A DNA stretch of 61,755 nt, the filler included, from Sphacelaria rigidula (lineage: Eukaryota): assembly GCA_964200075.2 (NCBI GenBank). It is 6 parts of 6 records of this genome, joined end to end, with 100 filler letters (N's around TTAATTAATTAA, not from the genome) between each part and the next. Parts side by side here need not be neighbours in the genome. Positions count along the whole stretch, not along the records: positions 41,240 to 51,447 come from CAXNAA020006927.1; 5 more parts are not named here. One strand, 5' to 3'. Both the position numbers and the translations under genes were made by a program. Positions 10,211 through 57,389 of the stretch are shown in pieces. Within the stretch, counting starts at the first letter, position 1. Each line of letters begins with the position of its first letter. The notes below the pieces were generated by a model. It saw nothing but the letters and a program-made list of their open reading frames with translations, was not told where the DNA came from and made no database searches.

Positions 10211-10310
10211 NNNNNNNNNNNNNNNNNNNNNNNNNNNNNNNNNNNNNNNNNNNNTTAATTAATTAANNNNNNNNNNNNNNNNNNNNNNNNNNNNNNNNNN
10301 NNNNNNNNNN
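10211..10310. other. Assembly linker (44 N + TTAATTAATTAA + 44 N) between contigs 1 and 2
   Basis: Seen directly; an identical 100-nt spacer recurs five times. Confidence 0.99.
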
Positions 10311-20520: not shown

Positions 20521-20620
20521 NNNNNNNNNNNNNNNNNNNNNNNNNNNNNNNNNNNNNNNNNNNNTTAATTAATTAANNNNNNNNNNNNNNNNNNNNNNNN
20601 NNNNNNNNNNNNNNNNNNNN
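20521..20620. other. Assembly linker between contigs 2 and 3
   Basis: N44-TTAATTAATTAA-N44. Confidence 0.99.
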
Positions 20621-30830: not shown

Positions 30831-30930
30831 NNNNNNNNNNNNNNNNNNNNNNNNNNNNNNNNNNNNNNNNNNNNTTAATTAATTAANNNNNNNNNNNNNN
30901 NNNNNNNNNNNNNNNNNNNNNNNNNNNNNN
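30831..30930. other. Assembly linker between contigs 3 and 4
   Basis: N44-TTAATTAATTAA-N44. Confidence 0.99.
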
Positions 30931-41139: not shown

Positions 41140-41239
41140 NNNNNNNNNNNNNNNNNNNNNNNNNNNNNNNNNNNNNNNNNNNNTTAATTAATTAANNNNN
41201 NNNNNNNNNNNNNNNNNNNNNNNNNNNNNNNNNNNNNNN
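41140..41239. other. Assembly linker between contigs 4 and 5
   Basis: N44-TTAATTAATTAA-N44. Confidence 0.99.
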
Positions 41240-45390: not shown

Positions 45391-47089
45391 CAACCGTCTG
45401 TCCCATGAAGAGCCCAACAGCCCACGCCTTGCAACCATGTGACGTTGCTCTTCGCATTCTCGCGCAAATGTCCATCCGCTCTCACGGAAATTTATACCCG
45501 GAAGATTCTTTTTCGTGAGAGTGATTTTGGGGGAGGTGAGAATGTGGCATCAAATCACAACCAATCAAAATCATGAAGAAATAATAAAAATCCCCAACCG
45601 CCACTATCACCATCTATCACTATCACGTCGTGCTCCCACATTTTTGGACGCGATAACACGGGCCCACGAGCTTATTTTTTTGTCGCACTTTGAACCCCTC
45701 CCCTTCCTCGGGGTAAGTCCGTAGTCTCAAGGGGTCAAGCCATCTCCTGTTTACGTCCTCACACTTTCGACGACGGTTGGTACACAGTTGTATCGACTCC
45801 ACACCCGTAGGGTAACCCCTGCATTCAAATTCAATAAAACGCACTGAATTAAATTACACGGGCGGAGCGCGTTATTTTCGAGCAGCACGCGCGCTAGCGT
45901 TTCCGTGTTGCCAACACCGTGCTAGCGTGCTTGTGCACTACAGCGTTGTACTCTCCTGTAGCAGCCCGTCACGGTATTGCTCCTCATGTTTCATGACAAT
46001 TTACTCGAAAGCACGCAGAAGAAATGCCAGCGAATCCATCGTTGTTGCACTTGGAGATGTGGTGTATCAGTTTTTCGATCTAGTACTGTCGCATGCTGCG
46101 TGCTGTATGAACTAGTATACCGTACCAGTTCAAAAACGGATATGCGTGAAATAAACGCCACCGACATGCTCTGGTTGTCATGAACTTAACTGTGTACGAG
46201 GCGCGGGGACCGTAGTTTTTGGCAAGGAATGCGAGGACGCAACCATACTGCAGTACAGGTAGCTTTTCATGCAACACGTGATTCGAATGAGAGATAGAAC
46301 AAAGCATTTACATGATGGTACCTGGGCGTTTTGGTACTGAAACGAGTCCACCAGTCCCTCCACTACCTACCGTAAGGAGATAAACACCACGTCTAAATAC
46401 AAAATAAGGTACGAGCACACCTTCATTTTAGAGTAGAGGATCCAGCCGAGACCACGCCGGGTTCACCGCCGAAATCCGAGACGCCAACGTTCCACACACC
46501 GAAATAAATTGAAATTGGAAGCGCCCGGGACACAGGGCAATCTATATATGACAATCGGCTCGGAAGTCCTCTCCCATGCTGGAGCTGCTAACGAGCTTGA
46601 TGCTATCTCGCAGCATTCCTAGTGCACTCTTGATTGCGTGTCAAAGTTGTCACACGCAATTCCGGCTCGTTTCCGCAAAGTAATAACCTCAGAACACGCT
46701 CTCACGCCACCATATGAGACGCCCCCGGTGCTCAATGCAGTACACAAACGCCATCGCCAAAATTGCGCCAATCGACTAGCGGTGGAGCCGTGCGTCATCA
46801 GCTTGGTCTGCAGTTTACAGGGATATACTTGAATCGGGCTGATGTGGCAAACTTGAGATCTTGTTAAGTGATATGCTTCTGTACGCTTCACGGCTGGACC
46901 AGCTCGCAGTATATGCAATTGGGTAAAAAGATTGTTCACTCTGGAAGATTCGACCTGGCGTATTGTGTTGCAAAGGCGCTCCCCAGCTGGCTCATCCTGT
47001 TGTAACCCTGGGCGTTTTTTGCACATGTATAGAGACGTTCAAACTCCCCACTGCTGGGCACGTGTCGACATCGTTGTCACGCGCACTGT

Positions 47090-47860
47090 TACTGTGCAGC
47101 ACGAGCATTATGCCCTCTTTTGCTATATCCACATTTTACTCATCTTAACTTGGTATTGCCATGGTGTGGCGGACGTCCTGCTTGCTGAAGGTATCATGGG
47201 CAATAGGTTCCTCCTTGTTGGCATCAAGTTAGATATGTCATCGATTTGTTTGGATACAGGCGAATGCCATCAGTCCAGTTTTCTTGCGTGATAAGGCGGT
47301 GTCCAATCAGGACGACAAACGAGTAGTTTTGAGTCTCACCATCTACCCCGTATGGACAGCTAGAACTGCCTAAATACCATGTGAAGCGAGGAGGCGTATC
47401 ATCAAGAAGGGGCGCGGTGAAACGATGCACTACATTCGAATATGTAGGAAGAGATGACACGACAGTACACTACACTACACCTCATTTTCAAGCTCCGCCA
47501 CCAGGCGTTCGGGGCAACGACGGTTGCCAACAATATTGGCGCAGGAAGCCTTCCATGTGGAAATATTCCGTTGGGGAAGATTCGTGTCCCCGAAATCTTG
47601 TGTTTGATACCCCCATCGTACGCTTCCTTCATTGTCTCGCCCAGACTCGAGGTGTCGGACACAGGAGGCTGGTGGTTATCCAAGGAATGAGATTTTTGGT
47701 CCGTATACTTCCCAAGCGGTGGAATATGGTGCTTGTCTTGACGGTGTCAGTACTATCGTGCGGTGGTTGTACCGCACTCATGTTCGGCCACCAGACATGT
47801 GCTTTTTCCAGCAGCCCACATGATTGCAGGGAAGTCCACTAAGGCTTTTCATGGACCACG
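47090..47860 (-). mobile_element. Probable MULE (Mutator-like) transposase C-terminal remnant
   Basis: Degenerate SWIM finger GTWS....SGLPCNHV (47816-47865) followed by a zinc-knuckle-like KCGYSKRGHNAR (47100-47137), the usual order in MULE/FAR1-type transposases. Confidence 0.5.
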
Positions 47861-48141
47861 TTCCCGATATCGAGAATCACGTCCGAACGTGACGTAAACC
47901 TCTCGAGGTTGTATCGCCGCGACCAACCACCAGCGAATGTCATGTTTGAAGGTGAGTATGTTGGTGCCGACAAGGCGCGGCCTTGTATAGGCTCCATTCG
48001 CTCGCCAACCTCGGTTTCACGTGTGACTCGTTACCCCCCCTCCGATGTGTCTGATGATCGTGCTACCTTGAGTAGTTTGTGCTGGACGAAGGACGATCAT
48101 ACAAAGGAGAGTTCTGCTCCCAGCATACTACGCCGAGAGTG

Positions 48142-50625
48142 ATGAAGGTAACGCGCCGAAACTGCGGCCACGAGGGCTGCTCCAGGCGACCGTCCTATTG
48201 CACACCGGGAAACAAGAAGGCTGAGTTCTGCTCCGGACATGCCACGGCCGAGATGGTGAATGTGGTGGATAAAATGTGCGCCCACGATGCCTGCCGTTAC
48301 CATCCGTCCTTTGGTGTAGCGGGAAGCAAGAAGGCAGAGTTCTGCTTACGACATGCTTCTCCAGGAATGGTGAACATAGTGACGAAGAGGTGCCGCCACG
48401 AAGGCTGCTCCAAGCATTCGGCGTATGGTGTAGCCGGCAGCAGGAAGCCGGAGTTCTGCTTACAGCATGCTCTTCCGAATATGGTGCATGTAAAGGGTAG
48501 CAGGTGCCGCCACGAGGGATGCTTGAAGCGCCCTTCATGCGGTGTACTGGGAAGCAAAAAGGCTGTGTTCTGCTCCTCTCATGCGTCTTCGGGGATGGTG
48601 AACGTGACGCGCCAGAGGTGCAGCCGCGAGGGCTGTTCCAAGTATCCGTCGTTTGGTGTAGCGGGAAGCAAGAAGGCGGAGTTCTGCTCACGACATGCTT
48701 CTCCAGGAATGGTGAACACAGTGACGAAGAGGTGCCGCCACGAAGGCTGCTCCAAGCATCCGTCGTATGGTGTTGCCGGCAGCAGGAAGCCGGAGTTCTG
48801 CTCACAGCATGCTCTTCCGAATATGGTGCATGTAAAGGATAGCAGGTGCCGCCACGAGGGATGCTTGAAGCGCCCTTCATGCGGTGTACTGGGAAGCAAA
48901 AAGGCTGTGTTCTGCTCCTCTCATGCGTCTCCGGGGATGGTGAACGTGACGCGCCAGAGGTGCAGCCGCGAGGGCTGTTCCAAGTATCCGTCGTTTGGTG
49001 TAGCGGGAAGCAAGAAGGCGGAGTTCTGCCTCCAGCATGCCTCCCCGGGGACGATTTACATGGACAAGAGGTGCAGTCACGAGGGCTGCTACAAGTCGCC
49101 GCATTATGGTGTAGCGGGGAGCAAGAAGACGGAGTTCTGCGCCCAGCATTGTTCTCCGGGAATGGTGAACGTAAGGGGCCGACGGTGCGGCCACGAGGGT
49201 TGCTACAAGTCGCCGGTATATGGTGCAGTGGGGAGCAAGAAGGCGGAGTTCTGCACCCAGCATCATTCTCCAGGAATGGTGAATGTGGTGAGCAAAAAGT
49301 GCGGCCACGAGGGCTGCTACAAGAAGCCGGTATATGGTGCAGTGGGGAGCAAGAAGGCAGAGTTCTGCACCCAGCATCATTCTCCAGGAATGGTGAATGT
49401 AGTGGGCAAAAAGTGCGGCCACGAGGGCTGCTTCAAGCAGCCGTTTTATGGCGTAGCGGGAAGCAAGAAGGTGGTGTTCTGCTCCATGCATGCTTCTCCA
49501 GGAATGGTGAATGTGGTAGGCAAACAGTGCGGCATCAAGCACTGCTACAAGCCGTCGAGTTATAATGTAGCGGGAAGCAAGACTGCGGAGTTCTGCCCAG
49601 AGCATGCTTCTCCCGGAATGGTGAAGGTGATGAGCATAAGGTGCGGCAACGAGAGCTGCCGCAAGTATTCGTCGTTTGGTGTAGCCGGAAGCAAGAAGGC
49701 GGAGTTCTGCTCCCTGCATGCGCGGCCGGGAATGGTGAACGTGAAAGACAAGCGATGCGACCACGAGGACTGGCCTCAGCGTCGGTCGGATGTAGGGAGA
49801 AGCACGATTGCGCAGTTCTGCTCCCAGCATCAAGAGGTGAGCGCGGTGCAAAAGAGGTGCGGCTGCGAGGACTCCCCTCAGTGTTCGTCCTGTTGTGTTG
49901 CTGGAAGCAAGGAGGCGCAGGTATTTCCTCAGCATGCCACGGGGGGAATGGTAGATGTGGGTGATCTGGTGGATGTCAAGTGTGGGCATGAGGGCTGCTC
50001 CGAGTGGAGTGTCTCTGGGAAGCACATTGTTGGTATGGCGAAGTTTTGCCGACGCTATGCTGTTCCAAACAACTCGGCCAGAGTAAACGTCTCAGCAGGG
50101 CTCATCAAGGAGGTGGGCACCTCCAGTCAAAGCCCGACGAAGGGTGACGGTGGTTGCATTGGTGATCAAGGGGGAACCAAACGCAACTGTGCAGCATTTT
50201 TGGGTTCTGGTGCGAGCGGCGGTGATTGCGCTCGTCGTGGTGTGCGCTTCGGCCCCAGGCAGAGTGGAACAGTGTCGCCGCTGGTCTCAGGACGCCGGCC
50301 GTCGGGGCCTCATGAGGTGTCGTCGAAGGCGACGGCAGGGGCAGGGATGAAGGTGGAGCTGGCGGCCCCTACTTCTGCTCGCACTCGCAATGGGGTGAGA
50401 CAGGGTAGCGTGAGGGATACCCCTTCAACTAGTCAGACACTTGTCAGTGGCAGTAGTAGCTCGAGCAACATCAGTTGTGGTGAGAGTAGGCGGCGGCTTC
50501 GTGGTTCACCAGCGGTGTTATCTAGAGGCCATGGCTTGTGTGATTTTGAATCCGCAGAGGCACCGGAAGATGCCAGCGTCAAGTTGGAGTTCAAGTTGTC
50601 CGGCTCTCGTCTTGAGATGTCCTGA
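48142..50625 (+). CDS. EsV-1-7 domain cysteine-rich repeat protein (IMMEDIATE UPRIGHT-like family), single exon
   Basis: Uninterrupted ORF (open from 48079, first ATG 48142). It has 14 repeats of C-x4-C-x16-C-x2-H-x12 (38 aa; one is 37 aa), three degenerate C-terminal repeats and a G/S/R-rich tail. A partial repeat precedes the ATG, so the true start may lie upstream. Confidence 0.93.
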   Translation: MKVTRRNCGHEGCSRRPSYCTPGNKKAEFCSGHATAEMVNVVDKMCAHDACRYHPSFGVAGSKKAEFCLRHASPGMVNIVTKRCRHEGCSKHSAYGVAGSRKPEFCLQHALPNMVHVKGSRCRHEGCLKRPSCGVLGSKKAVFCSSHASSGMVNVTRQRCSREGCSKYPSFGVAGSKKAEFCSRHASPGMVNTVTKRCRHEGCSKHPSYGVAGSRKPEFCSQHALPNMVHVKDSRCRHEGCLKRPSCGVLGSKKAVFCSSHASPGMVNVTRQRCSREGCSKYPSFGVAGSKKAEFCLQHASPGTIYMDKRCSHEGCYKSPHYGVAGSKKTEFCAQHCSPGMVNVRGRRCGHEGCYKSPVYGAVGSKKAEFCTQHHSPGMVNVVSKKCGHEGCYKKPVYGAVGSKKAEFCTQHHSPGMVNVVGKKCGHEGCFKQPFYGVAGSKKVVFCSMHASPGMVNVVGKQCGIKHCYKPSSYNVAGSKTAEFCPEHASPGMVKVMSIRCGNESCRKYSSFGVAGSKKAEFCSLHARPGMVNVKDKRCDHEDWPQRRSDVGRSTIAQFCSQHQEVSAVQKRCGCEDSPQCSSCCVAGSKEAQVFPQHATGGMVDVGDLVDVKCGHEGCSEWSVSGKHIVGMAKFCRRYAVPNNSARVNVSAGLIKEVGTSSQSPTKGDGGCIGDQGGTKRNCAAFLGSGASGGDCARRGVRFGPRQSGTVSPLVSGRRPSGPHEVSSKATAGAGMKVELAAPTSARTRNGVRQGSVRDTPSTSQTLVSGSSSSSNISCGESRRRLRGSPAVLSRGHGLCDFESAEAPEDASVKLEFKLSGSRLEMS

Positions 50626-51447: not shown

Positions 51448-51547
51448 NNNNNNNNNNNNNNNNNNNNNNNNNNNNNNNNNNNNNNNNNNNNTTAATTAAT
51501 TAANNNNNNNNNNNNNNNNNNNNNNNNNNNNNNNNNNNNNNNNNNNN
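51448..51547. other. Assembly linker between contigs 5 and 6
   Basis: N44-TTAATTAATTAA-N44. Confidence 0.99.
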
Positions 51548-51596: not shown

Positions 51597-52359
51597 ATAA
51601 GTAGTATAAAACCGGTATTTTATCGGTAGACACCCACGCTTTCAAACCATACCGGATTGTTCGGAGCAAGGCCTGATACCCTCCTGGACCATCCCGAGCC
51701 ATTCAGTAAACATTTCGCGGTGTGGCTTATTAGTGAGCCAACCAACGCTCATTAGTGAGCCAACCAACAGTCCACCACTTCCGGGTATACACTATCTAAG
51801 CAGAACACAACGTTGATTTATCTTCTGTGCTACTCACGTGCTCGCGTTTTCAACAACGAAAATCAGACGCTTCCCCGAAAAAAAAGTCCCACACTTCATT
51901 TTTAGGGAATCGGACCCGCAGTCTTTTGATTTGTTCGTCTTCCGTTGTACCAATTAGACCACCGGGGCGACCGCCATGCCATGTGTATGTTATTTTCCAG
52001 CGTTTGAACCTACGGGTCTCTCGTTGGGTGACGACTATGACAAAATGTCATCATCCATCATACCGGCACTCCGACGACACGAACAACAGGATGTCAAGGT
52101 AGGCTATACGGGGAGCATGCCATGCGCTATATAACTAATAAACTAGGATGCTATTTTTTCGATGTCTCCTACCTCATACCTATCGATAACAGCCATACTA
52201 CCCCTTCTCATCTGTCCATACCACGGACTACCTTTCTCACAGTACATGGGGGAAAAAAGGTCATTCGACTATTTTCCCGTTTTATTAAAAAGGGTTTCCC
52301 GAATAGAGGCCCTTCAGAACTTGCCGAAGATAAAAAAAAACACACACAAAACCTTTAAT

Positions 52360-52720: not shown

Positions 52721-54382
52721 GCGAATAAAGCAAAACATCACCTGAGGTACGCAACAAAACCATGCTCCCGTGATAAACAATAGTGATACGGGAGAGGCCC
52801 AAAAGCTTTCCAGCAGTCGTAAAAATAACACCATACGCTACTCCTTTAAAATATGTGATGACCATCCCTTTCTCCGACTCTGGGTTACAAAGAATCAGGA
52901 AAATATCCTCCACAATATATGCTCACCGGATCCCACTACTCCATATTTCAGAATACACGAATTGCAATTGCCGCCACCATTAACCTCTACACTGTACGAT
53001 ACGATGATGCGCAAAAAATGCACCAGAATATCTCTCCACTGCGATCGGAAGGCCTACCAGGATAGGAGCGCCGAGCGGCATTAGACACAGTCTCATGATA
53101 TCAAAATATTACAAAACTAAACCGGAGACTTTATGGAGTATGCATAGATATTCATCTACACATATACTACGCCTAAAGTCGGACAACCTTCGAAAACATT
53201 CACAAAAACAAACTTGTACAAAAAAATAATACCGTATCGTGCCGCATGCGCAAATGGTACGGCAGCACCATACCGTAGCGTACAGGATAGTCGTATCAGT
53301 GAAAGCAAACACTCGCCTTTCAAAACACCATCAAACATACACACACAACACACCACAAAATTGCGACTATCTCTGGGGAACTTTCGCCGATTTCCGGGAA
53401 AAGATACCCCCAACAGTGAGCGGAACGAGAGGTGAATATAACGCAGCGTTCTAATCTATCAGACATCGTCAAAACTCACGGATGCCAAGCCTGAATTGAA
53501 AACTGCGGATACATTGTCCCCTTCTCTCCGAACACCGCTGAAATTTCTGCTGGAGAGGCGGAGTGCCATTATCAGTAAGTGCTTCCTCCCCGCAAGCCTG
53601 GTCCGGCGAAAAAAAACCGGCGTGCTCCGTCTTTGCAGGGATGCGAGGCCAATGGCCATATGACTACGGCATGCAAGATCATTAGTACACCCCTCCGCCG
53701 CCCCCCCGCCGCCCTATCAAGCTGCGCCCTTGGTGCGCACCCTATTTACCTGTTCCGTCGGCTACATCGCACGTCTCCAAACCTAGGCTTGGGAGTCATC
53801 GTCTTTCATCGCACTAGCGTCGATGGTGGCTTGCGAGACTTGCATTGGTGGCTGCGGAGGTTGCTGTTTCGGACAAGGGAAGGTTTGCCAACATAGAAAA
53901 AAACAGACGAAAAGAGCACCCACGACCAACGTGTGTCAACAAAACAGCGGCGCAAGGCAACAGGAAAGGGGAGGTAGGGGGAGGGGGGGGAGGGGGAGAG
54001 GATGTAAATTGCTGCAAAAGCCTTCATGTTACTGACCGAGCCTGCTCAGACTCACAGTATACTTCTCGCACCCGCTGAAAATGACATCCTGTAGCTATGC
54101 GAGGCAAACGTTCCTCGCGTTGACGGCATCCTGACAAACACCAAGAGTACTTGGAAACGGGAGGGACGACCGTGATACAGTGTGTGATGTCGCACATGCC
54201 AGGGTGCTCACGTAGGTCTTGTACTATATATATATATATATACTTCAGCCCTCCATACAAGCTAGCTTCTCACTGAGCGAGAGCAGGAACCAAAACACGA
54301 AATCATCAAAAGGAATTGGAACCACAGAAAAACAAGGATGGACATGAGACAAGATAGGGGCGGAGGAGGCATTCGATCTCAC

Positions 54383-54701
54383 CGAGTCAAACTTGAGAGG
54401 CGCTGGAGATTCTCCATGCACCACCCTTGGCCGAGGTGCTCGACTCACGCCTCCACCAGCACCCGCATCACCGACGCCTCCGGGCCTTTTTCTTCCTACT
54501 TTCCAGCAGCCCATCATGGAATCCTCCAACAAAGCATCCTCCTCCTCTAGCACCCACGTTGGCTCGGGAGTCCACTCGGGAGCCCCGATCTCGTGATTAA
54601 AAGGCATCACCACCACGAATCGGAACGACCAGAACGCGCAGACCGCTCCGAGGACCAGTCCCGCGAGTACGTCGTCAGGTCGGTGCCAAAAATCTCGAAT
54701 T
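54383..54701 (-). CDS. PAP2/lipid phosphate phosphatase-like gene, exon carrying most of the C3 motif (R|IRDFWHRPDDVLAGLVLGAVCAFW...)
   Basis: tag|A acceptor in phase 2; the R-x5-H-x3-D motif is completed across the junction; the 3' end is either the donor at 54383 or read-through to the stop at 54245. Confidence 0.85.
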
Positions 54702-55685
54702 CTAAACAGACGGAGGGGAAAGGAGGCGGGGGGGATGACCAACACACCAAGAGTTGGTTCGGGAACGATCAACGTATGCACCATCATCGTTGACATCTGA
54801 TGTCATCGAGGTGTCGACCACGCTTCCGGTCGTCACATGCACCTCCTGGCTGTCGCTAGCATGCAATAGCTGACGAGGATTCGGGGGAGGGGGGCAACGA
54901 GCATCATCCTGTCTGTTCATGACGATAGGAAATTGTTCTGAGTACCACATAACAAGAAGAAGAACGAGAATTTCCCACCGTATTTTACACTATGGCTACG
55001 CAGTTCCGAAATCACCGTGTGCTGCAAAATTCGCACCACCAAATATATACGTTTATGTTTATGCACGGTTTTGCACGTTACTCTCATCTCTTTCATATAC
55101 AGACAACGAAAACATCATCAACCCGACCGAAATATCAGCGGCAGCAGCAGCGGCGGCGGCGAGGGTATGTAGAGTACGTCATCTCCAGTCCACATCCAGG
55201 TGTATAAGAATGCTGATTGTTGATGCAGCGCTTTGGATGTGAGGTTTACATGAGATCGGGAGATTGTATATTCTCTGGAGCATGACCGTGGCTGCCTGAT
55301 ATTTGATATGTGTGTGCAGATGTGCCGATCACTTCCTGTAACGAAGATCCTGTGTGCTTGTGAACAACATCCATCTGTCTTGACGTTTCCAAGCCCTAGT
55401 GAGGGAAGAAGCCCTTGGAGTAGTCCTGCGACCTTGGTCTGACTCCAGACAGGTGTAAAATAAACGTTTACTCAGGAAAACCTGCAGGTTTCCGGGTTAG
55501 GCTTTTCCAGCAGCGAGGGGTCTCCGTACACTTTTGCAAAGCTCACCGTCTGCAAAGAAGCGAGGACGCTCGCCAAAAGACAGAGAGACGGCTACGTTAA
55601 CTGCAAGCACTGCACGCTGCGATCCTTCGCCAAGAAGCGTGTACGCAGTGCTTCATCAGGTCTACAGGCAGCAACAACATCACAC

Positions 55686-57109: not shown

Positions 57110-57389
57110 CTGTGAAAAAAATGAGACGCAATCGAACAAACGATTCGAAGAGGAATGCAAGAAGGAGCAAATTCAATCAAAACACAGGAAGAAAACGGGA
57201 GGGGGGGGGGGGGGGGGGGGGGTTTTGTGTAAGGAAGAGGAGTATATTAAAAAAAAAAAAAAAAAAAAACAAAAAACAGACACAAGAAAGANNNNNNGAA
57301 GGGGGGGGGGGGGGGGGGGGGGGGGGGTATACTGTAAGTAAGTAGTATATTATATCAAGAAAAACAGTCAAGCAACATACACATGCTCA

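Follow-up and report, generated by a model that had tools for sequence, protein, structure and literature searches.

What does a protein built around a long tandem array of cysteine-rich repeats do in a brown alga, and do the residues that differ from one repeat to the next form a code? The question is raised by a gene in a window of 61,755 nucleotides (nt), filler included, which is the whole stretch of DNA analysed and consists of six parts of six records of the Sphacelaria rigidula assembly GCA_964200075.2. The product of the gene, P0001, carries an array of EsV-1-7 repeats. A sequence-only reading of this DNA had proposed that the array is a modular binder of nucleic acid, comparable to C2H2 zinc-finger and TALE arrays. 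The answer that is given slightly better than an even chance here is that P0001 is an EsV-1-7 array protein that lacks a nuclease, has expanded recently, and belongs to a cellular genome of algal type, and that its array binds nucleic acid, which is probably DNA, over its whole extent. The cited papers describe EsV-1-7 as a possible new type of zinc finger whose function is unknown; in their account the family has expanded in brown algae and probably came from viruses (10.64898/2026.04.27.720984, 10.1101/2024.02.19.579948, PMC12993054, PMC12477816, PMC7457493). The sequence-only reading had regarded the ligand as not established, and the literature calls the function unknown (10.64898/2026.04.27.720984, 10.1101/2024.02.19.579948, PMC7457493).

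The evidence that carries this answer comes from relatives of P0001. Two database searches gave 235 homologues, and 128 of these share the motif RPD...E.DE.QH...NPD, which lies in the C-terminal part of the protein, some 120 residues before its last residue. In a 90-protein alignment the residues R, P, D, E, D, E, Q, H, R, N, and P are invariant. The domain matches no Pfam or NCBIfam family, the Pfam scan covering 10 proteins. The AlphaFold2 model of one fusion protein, P0116, has a predicted local distance difference test score (pLDDT) of 91.9. When it was compared with the PDB by Foldseek, the ten best-ranked matches were all PD-(D/E)xK nucleases, and the remaining matches listed were almost entirely nucleases. 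The nucleases matched include the R2 endonuclease domain (E=7.6e-3), McrC, Hjc resolvases, Bax1, La Crosse virus endonuclease, PspGI, and SfsA, with probabilities of up to 0.97. The modelled fold thus supports a PD-(D/E)xK-like nuclease as the C-terminal domain of the fusions.

The same model has 52 matches at E<=0.001 in BFVD, of which the best-ranked are from giant viruses and a few low-ranked ones from phages. The matches include several proteins of Faunusvirus, Cedratvirus, and Pithovirus LCPAC that bear the name 'Endonuclease', one DUF559 protein, and EsV-1-7 itself. Of the Atlas clusters, those closest to the nuclease domain are 91-100% viral, with Nucleocytoviricota as the commonest phylum. 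These leads assign the fusion proteins to giant viruses. Six giant-virus entries of BFVD named 'C2H2-type domain-containing protein' also match the P0116 model, with E values from 5e-9 to 2e-6; as a lead only, they may represent the same nuclease joined to C2H2 fingers.

When the nuclease domain alone was the query, 3532 proteins were retrieved. Among the best 120 of these 3532, 52 have an EsV-1-7 array, 67 have an array with a period of 18 amino acids (aa), one has neither, and none has both. The 18-aa repeat, C-x-H-x7-C-x2-C, has an exact period (for example in P0252, P0253, and P0296) and no Pfam family, and the nuclease domain of the proteins that carry it is 61-70% identical to that of P0116. 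P0116 and its closest relatives differ by 25-27% in the array and by 14% in the nuclease domain. P0116 is matched by the EsV-1-7 family model PF19114, and fusions of its type match P0001 with E of about 1e-46. No description of a fusion between an EsV-1-7 array and a nuclease was found in the literature searched, a library of limited coverage. A different fusion has been described in Ectocarpus, where the Tc1/mariner transposase TcMar-2_Ec32 acquired an N-terminal EsV-1-7 domain (PMC12477816).

A nucleic-acid-binding role is therefore most likely for the array, by analogy with its relatives, because it lies N-terminal to a nuclease, is swapped with another zinc-repeat array, and is fused to an Ectocarpus transposase. 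The repeated fusion to DNA-acting enzymes and the charge of the array point in the same direction. The sequence-only reading had suggested nucleic-acid binding, and this part of it gains comparative support from the nuclease and transposase fusions. A rival reading makes the array an RNA binder. Many RNA binders use Cys3-His ligand sets, and the matched nuclease fold includes RNA endonucleases, so that the nucleic acid may be DNA or RNA. The nuclease behind the array in most of the retrieved relatives, together with the exchange of the array, makes it reasonable to regard EsV-1-7 arrays as modules that target nucleic acid.

The gene itself is one uninterrupted open reading frame (ORF), the longest in the window, where the next longest outside the locus has 280 aa. 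Its parts are as follows.

48079..50625, plus strand: ORF of P0001, 848 codons plus stop.
48109..48162, plus strand: half unit (F-C-x2-H plus linker) 5' of unit 1, where the Tandem Repeats Finder array starts.
48163..49755, plus strand: 14 canonical units C-x4-C-x16-C-x2-H-x12, found by regular expression and Pfam; 114 nt each, unit 8 with 111 nt.
48277..48960, plus strand: duplicated block, units 2-4 (48277..48618) and units 5-7 (48619..48960), 320/342 nt identical.
49072..49527, plus strand: units 9-12, the stretch folded with AlphaFold2.
49186..49413, plus strand: units 10 and 11, the second recent duplicate pair, 95% nt identity.
49756..50091, plus strand: three degenerate units with Cys ligands lost or spacing altered, seen by hhalign and in the comparison with P0146.
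50092..50625, plus strand: Ser/Gly/Arg-rich C-terminal tail and stop codon, defined by composition.

The regular expression gives exactly 14 units, as the sequence-only reading had counted, and no further motif copy in the six frames of the window. They start at 48163, 48277, 48391, 48505, 48619, 48733, 48847, 48961, 49072, 49186, 49300, 49414, 49528, and 49642. All zinc-ligand residues are intact (56/56), and each intact Cys3-His module presumably binds one zinc. The ligands are likewise invariant in 1261 units of the family, as the regular expression used to extract them requires. The assignment to the EsV-1-7 family was correct: PF19114 (EsV_1_7_cys) matches P0001 in 15 stretches with E=4.7e-215 and 695.5 bits against a cut-off of 25. 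The basic character claimed for the array was borne out as well, with a net charge (K+R-D-E) of +54 over 532 aa and an isoelectric point (pI) of 9.5. A uniform unit length of 38 aa holds for 13 of the 14 units; unit 8 has 37 residues and an 11-residue spacer. Tandem Repeats Finder reports a period of 114 with 15.2 copies and a score of 1159 over 48109..49830, and a second period of 342. Position 48142, where the sequence-only reading let the array begin, is that of the first ATG in frame. Of the 28 residues ahead of unit 1, 7 follow the first Met. Three frames of 46801..48200 contain no recognizable upstream EsV-1-7 exon. The region 48001..50000 has a GC content of 0.572 and a GC skew of +0.17, compared to about 0.50 and about 0 in the flanks. 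Long stop-free frames also cover the array at 48128..49432 (minus strand), 48877..50091 (minus strand), and 48843..49565 (plus strand), with no family match; they are most simply by-products of the repeat on the other strand or in another frame.

At the 3' edge, the degenerate units match EsV-1-7 units of alignment A2 (hhalign, probability 91.6). The degenerate units and the tail (P0001 residues 552-841) are 55% identical to P0146, a 298-aa database protein. Two of the degenerate units have lost the same Cys ligands in P0001 and P0146, which indicates that the degeneration of those two units is old; the first degenerate unit is intact in P0146. The tail has a pI of 10.0 and a low-complexity composition and matches no Pfam family, and a search with it found no full-length relative of 466-1484 aa. 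A decayed nuclease was considered for the tail and rejected: hhalign of residues 560-848 against alignment A2 aligns repeat units only. In the six frames of the window, the regular expression for the nuclease motif gives one weak partial match, at about 5670 on the minus strand.

Whether the array encodes a specificity depends first on where its units differ. The sequence-only reading described a constant scaffold with hypervariable sites, namely a hexapeptide after the second cysteine and two residues between the third cysteine and the histidine. Its 14 hexapeptides are reproduced letter for letter in the translation. Per-position entropy over the 14 units is 2.1, 2.65, and 1.6 bits at positions 7, 9, and 11, and these alternate with the conserved K8 (12/14), P10 (11/14), and the aromatic-type position 12 (Y/F/C). 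The hexapeptide is thus variable in half of its positions and conserved in the others, and while most hexapeptides differ between units, 12 of 14 are distinct, owing to duplicated units. Positions 24 and 25 vary as claimed, with 5 and 7 residue types and entropies of 1.9 and 2.4 bits. A third cluster was overlooked, which comprises the inter-unit linker positions 35, 36, and 37 together with position 2 (1.8-2.2 bits). The entropy therefore upholds positions 7, 9, 11, 24, and 25 and adds the linker. In one respect the likeness to C2H2 arrays fails: the linker is as variable as the supposed recognition positions, unlike in C2H2 arrays.

The array is young. Units 2-4 and 5-7 form a 342-bp block in two copies with 320/342 nt identical (93.6%); unit 3 is 96% identical to unit 6, and unit 4 is 99% identical to unit 7. 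Units 10 and 11 are 95% identical in nt, differing by the non-synonymous changes S9K and S36G and by three synonymous codons. Other unit pairs are 63-86% identical. Because of this recent duplication, most of each unit still looks constant, and the sharply constant frame is mainly a property of a young array. In older arrays almost all non-ligand positions vary, with a pairwise diversity of 0.5-0.8. The contrast between scaffold and hypervariable sites is real in so far as variation is focused here, and its sharpness comes largely from the youth of the array.

The variable sites here are the sites that are fastest in the family generally. The variability profile of P0001 correlates with family entropy (Spearman 0.72; 1261 distinct canonical units from 227 proteins) and with mean within-array diversity (Spearman 0.78; 168 other arrays with >=5 units each). 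The most diverse positions within these 168 arrays are 9, 36, 35, 11, 38, 7, and 25. Family-wide, position 9 is the most unit-specific, with Fst of 0.08. When 33 independent pairs of close homologues are compared, the divergence of single positions rises gradually from 0.05 to 0.50, so that no separate group of hypervariable positions stands out; the fastest positions are 7, 3, 29, 4, 15, and 25. Evenly spread variation, which the sequence-only reading had named as a finding that would speak against it, is not seen in P0001 (twice the log-likelihood difference, 2dlnL=44.2, p=3e-11), and across the family the variation is graded and broad.

Selection was examined with codon models on the 14 units, using iqtree2 (GY+F3X4) and own GY94 code on that tree. 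The one-ratio model gave a ratio of non-synonymous to synonymous rates (omega, dN/dS) of 0.470 and a log-likelihood (lnL) of -972.055 by iqtree2, and both were reproduced by the own code. The fast class consisted of positions 7, 9, 11, 25, 35, 36, and 38, chosen beforehand from other arrays. In the two-class model, omega is 1.46 at the fast sites and 0.35 elsewhere, which is the improvement over one ratio given above (2dlnL=44.2, p=3e-11). The value of 1.46 is not significantly above 1 (p=0.10). At the sites named by the sequence-only reading (7-12, 24, 25), omega is 1.11 (p=0.63 vs 1) and no diversifying selection is demonstrated. Site 9 has an omega of 2.9 (p=0.013, synonymous rate fixed, uncorrected); it is not significant with a free synonymous rate, and no site is significantly above 1 after correction for 38 tests. 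Omega is significantly less than 1 at sites 1, 4, 6, 8, 16-19, 21-23, 26, 31, and 32. Purifying selection acts on the scaffold, and change at the variable sites is close to neutral.

These results bear on the proposal that EsV-1-7 arrays are true modular readers, with one unit per subsite, in which positions 7/9/11, 24/25, and perhaps 35-36 specify bases and diversify against transposable elements (TEs) or viruses. The focused variation, the unit specificity and uncorrected omega of position 9, and the alternation 7, K8, 9, P10, 11, Y12, compatible with a single face of an extended stretch of chain, are in its favor. So are the two different N-terminal repeat arrays among close copies of one nuclease domain and the divergence of the array, about twice that of the nuclease domain in the closest viral relatives. 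On the other hand, omega does not significantly exceed 1 at the candidate sites, the linker is variable, and close homologues have no compact set of fastest positions. Family variability extends in graded form over some two thirds of the unit, which together with the variable linker argues against a compact TALE-like code, and the 12 neighbouring ORFs contain no TE or viral genes. The selection and variability analyses lend no support to a compact code of one unit per subsite or to TEs or viruses as targets. A residue-to-base code may exist, and the full modular reader is considered rather unlikely.

The same data raise the opposite idea, that the array is a drifting, functionless product of tandem duplication, such as a satellite-like ORF or a young pseudogene, and that its pattern has no functional meaning. 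Duplicates that are still 94-99% identical, the decay of units toward the 3' edge, and near-neutral omega at many sites would fit this, as would the 23 non-synonymous and 11 synonymous codon differences in the five recent unit pairs. A close full-length orthologue was not found in the homologue and tail searches. However, the frame is open over 848 codons with every zinc ligand retained, scaffold omega is 0.35 with sites 4, 8, 17-19, 21, and 32 among those significantly below 1, and P0146 retains the tail and degenerate units with 55% identity. Drift without function is thus highly improbable.

The predicted fold gives a further view of the array. The AlphaFold2 model of units 9-12 (alignment A1, 117 rows) has a mean pLDDT of 94.5 and a predicted template modelling score (pTM) of 0.67. 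It contains no helices, and beta-bridges are predicted at unit positions 12-13, 22, and 32-33. The best Foldseek match of this four-unit model in the PDB has E=2.0, and none of 18 matches reaches E<=0.001; the weak ones are assorted zinc-binding domains. Such a helix-free module with no PDB analogue would also suit a repeat that binds or scaffolds proteins in a LIM- or RING-like manner, with a variable surface and no nucleic acid bound. The passages on IMM, a family member that acts in development and whose biochemistry is described as unknown (PMC7457493), and the lack of a DNA-binding annotation in the passages cited are consistent with this. It is opposed by the recurrence of the array as the sole N-terminal module on a nuclease, and on a transposase, and by the high positive charge of the array. 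A purely protein-binding repeat is therefore held to be unlikely, and nucleic-acid binding is preferred.

Mean-field covariation was computed on 864 two-unit windows (effective number of sequences, Meff, 749), in which same-position couplings of adjacent units and invariant-column artefacts dominate. Reproducible intra-unit couplings are 2-21, 13-17, 13-34, 20-34, 33-36, 28-31, 3-28, and 8-25. K8 is coupled to position 25 (z 3.1-3.6), and linker position 36 is weakly coupled to position 9 of the next unit (z 2.7). Couplings 8-25 and 36-9 weakly suggest that the three variable clusters may be neighbours.

Several points weigh against P0001 as a nucleic-acid binder. The lack of significant positive selection and the graded, broad variability are two of them, and the ligand set and the RNA endonucleases mentioned above also count here. 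The passages retrieved from the cited literature hold no binding data for the EsV-1-7 family. PDB sequence and profile searches with P0001 and alignment A2 gave no matches. No PDB match of P0116 is at E<=0.001, the best being 7.6e-3. The nuclease motif is present in none of the 19 named algal homologues and is absent from P0001, and the function would be carried over, by analogy, from viral relatives that are only 30-45% identical.

With these points taken into account, the history and the proposed role of the nuclease-less array are as follows. The array grew by recent tandem duplication, three-unit block included, and its units have begun to differ at the least constrained positions (7/9/11, 24/25, and 35-37 plus 2). 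Every module would add contacts to nucleic acid, which is probably DNA, over the full array, and the algal proteins would be array-only derivatives that act as regulators. A bolder and rather doubtful extension would make EsV-1-7 a third type of modular repeat that reads nucleic acid in nature, independent of C2H2 fingers and TALEs. It would be an exchangeable targeting arm of a giant-virus nuclease, stripped of the nuclease and expanded in brown algae to hundreds of sequence-specific regulators including IMM, with 7/9/11, 24/25, and the adjoining linker as its reading surface. P0001 alone adds little to the family, and its scaffold-plus-variable look is mostly a sign of recent duplication.

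In the surroundings of the gene, the 12 neighbouring long ORFs of the window match no viral or TE family. A PAP2 phosphatase-family match at 54245..54802 on the minus strand is below the threshold (E=2e-4, 21.5 bits vs a cut-off of 27.2) and is possibly an exon of a neighbouring gene. On the downstream side, 51725..51768 comprises a 22-bp direct repeat in two copies with 95% matching. Paired runs of 44 N occur about every 10.3 kb (10211..10310, 20521..20620, 30831..30930, 41140..41239, and 51448..51547), with a run of 6 N at 57292..57297; these look like masking or assembly artefacts and not biology.

The named proteins that match P0001 best are brown-algal, belonging to Sphacelaria, Ectocarpus, Pylaiella, and Scytosiphon. 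The family comprises 6324 cluster representatives at E<=0.001. The closest homologue is 48% identical, with no near-identical protein found. P0001 has 14 canonical units, compared to a maximum of 11 among the 235 homologues. The founding paper on EsV-1-7 is said to be that of Macaisne et al. in 2017. The PDB sequence search with P0001 gave no match. A WRKY19-type zinc finger was rejected, since Zf_WRKY19 (PF24906) scores 22.8 bits on P0001 against a Pfam cut-off of 27, with E=8e-05 and a match limited to profile positions 1-15 of 24. Such sub-threshold matches overlap EsV-1-7 units, for example at residues 367-381, and some homologues carry both labels. They hint at a land-plant zinc finger related to the EsV-1-7 unit; the family is stated to be absent from land plants in the retrieved literature passages.

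Compared to the EsV-1-7 family (PF19114), which includes EsV-1-7 of Ectocarpus siliculosus virus 1 and IMM, P0001 shares the unit spacing and tandem layout. The family is among the most expanded in brown algae, with 2018 proteins in 31 genomes (10.1101/2024.02.19.579948). According to the retrieved text, none of the Ectocarpus EsV-1-7 genes has another Pfam domain (10.64898/2026.04.27.720984), and P0001 is like them. IMM has a unique N-terminal domain followed by five EsV-1-7 repeats (10.1101/2024.02.19.579948), whereas P0001 has 14 units and no N-terminal non-repeat domain. Judged on this description, P0001 was rejected as an IMM orthologue, as only 28 residues precede unit 1. The tail of P0001 is specific within the family and is common to P0146 only.

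The fusion proteins have the same unit length and ligand spacing as P0001, with an identity of only about 30-45%. They differ in having a Cys-rich segment after the array and the nuclease domain, both of which are absent from P0001. TcMar-2_Ec32 of Ectocarpus likewise has an EsV-1-7 domain, and P0001 is without its transposase domain.

CCCH fingers have the spacing C-x7-8-C-x5-C-x3-H. A CCCH finger of the tristetraprolin type was rejected for P0001, which has C-x4-C-x16-C-x2-H instead and no zf-CCCH Pfam match. C2H2 fingers have the spacing C-x2-4-C-x12-H-x3-5-H, a beta-beta-alpha fold, and a conserved linker. Arrays of them, such as those of KRAB-ZNF proteins, resemble P0001 in their tandem small zinc modules, growth by unit duplication, and differences concentrated at some positions. 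They are unlike P0001 in ligand order and spacing, and the helix-free model, the variable linker, and the lack of significant positive selection set P0001 apart; it also has no zf-C2H2 Pfam match, and a C2H2 array was rejected. TALE repeats are helical and metal-free and have two hypervariable residues. They are similar to P0001 in unit length (about 34 vs 38 aa) and in the near-constant frame of young arrays, and they differ from EsV-1-7, in which variability across the family is graded over many positions.

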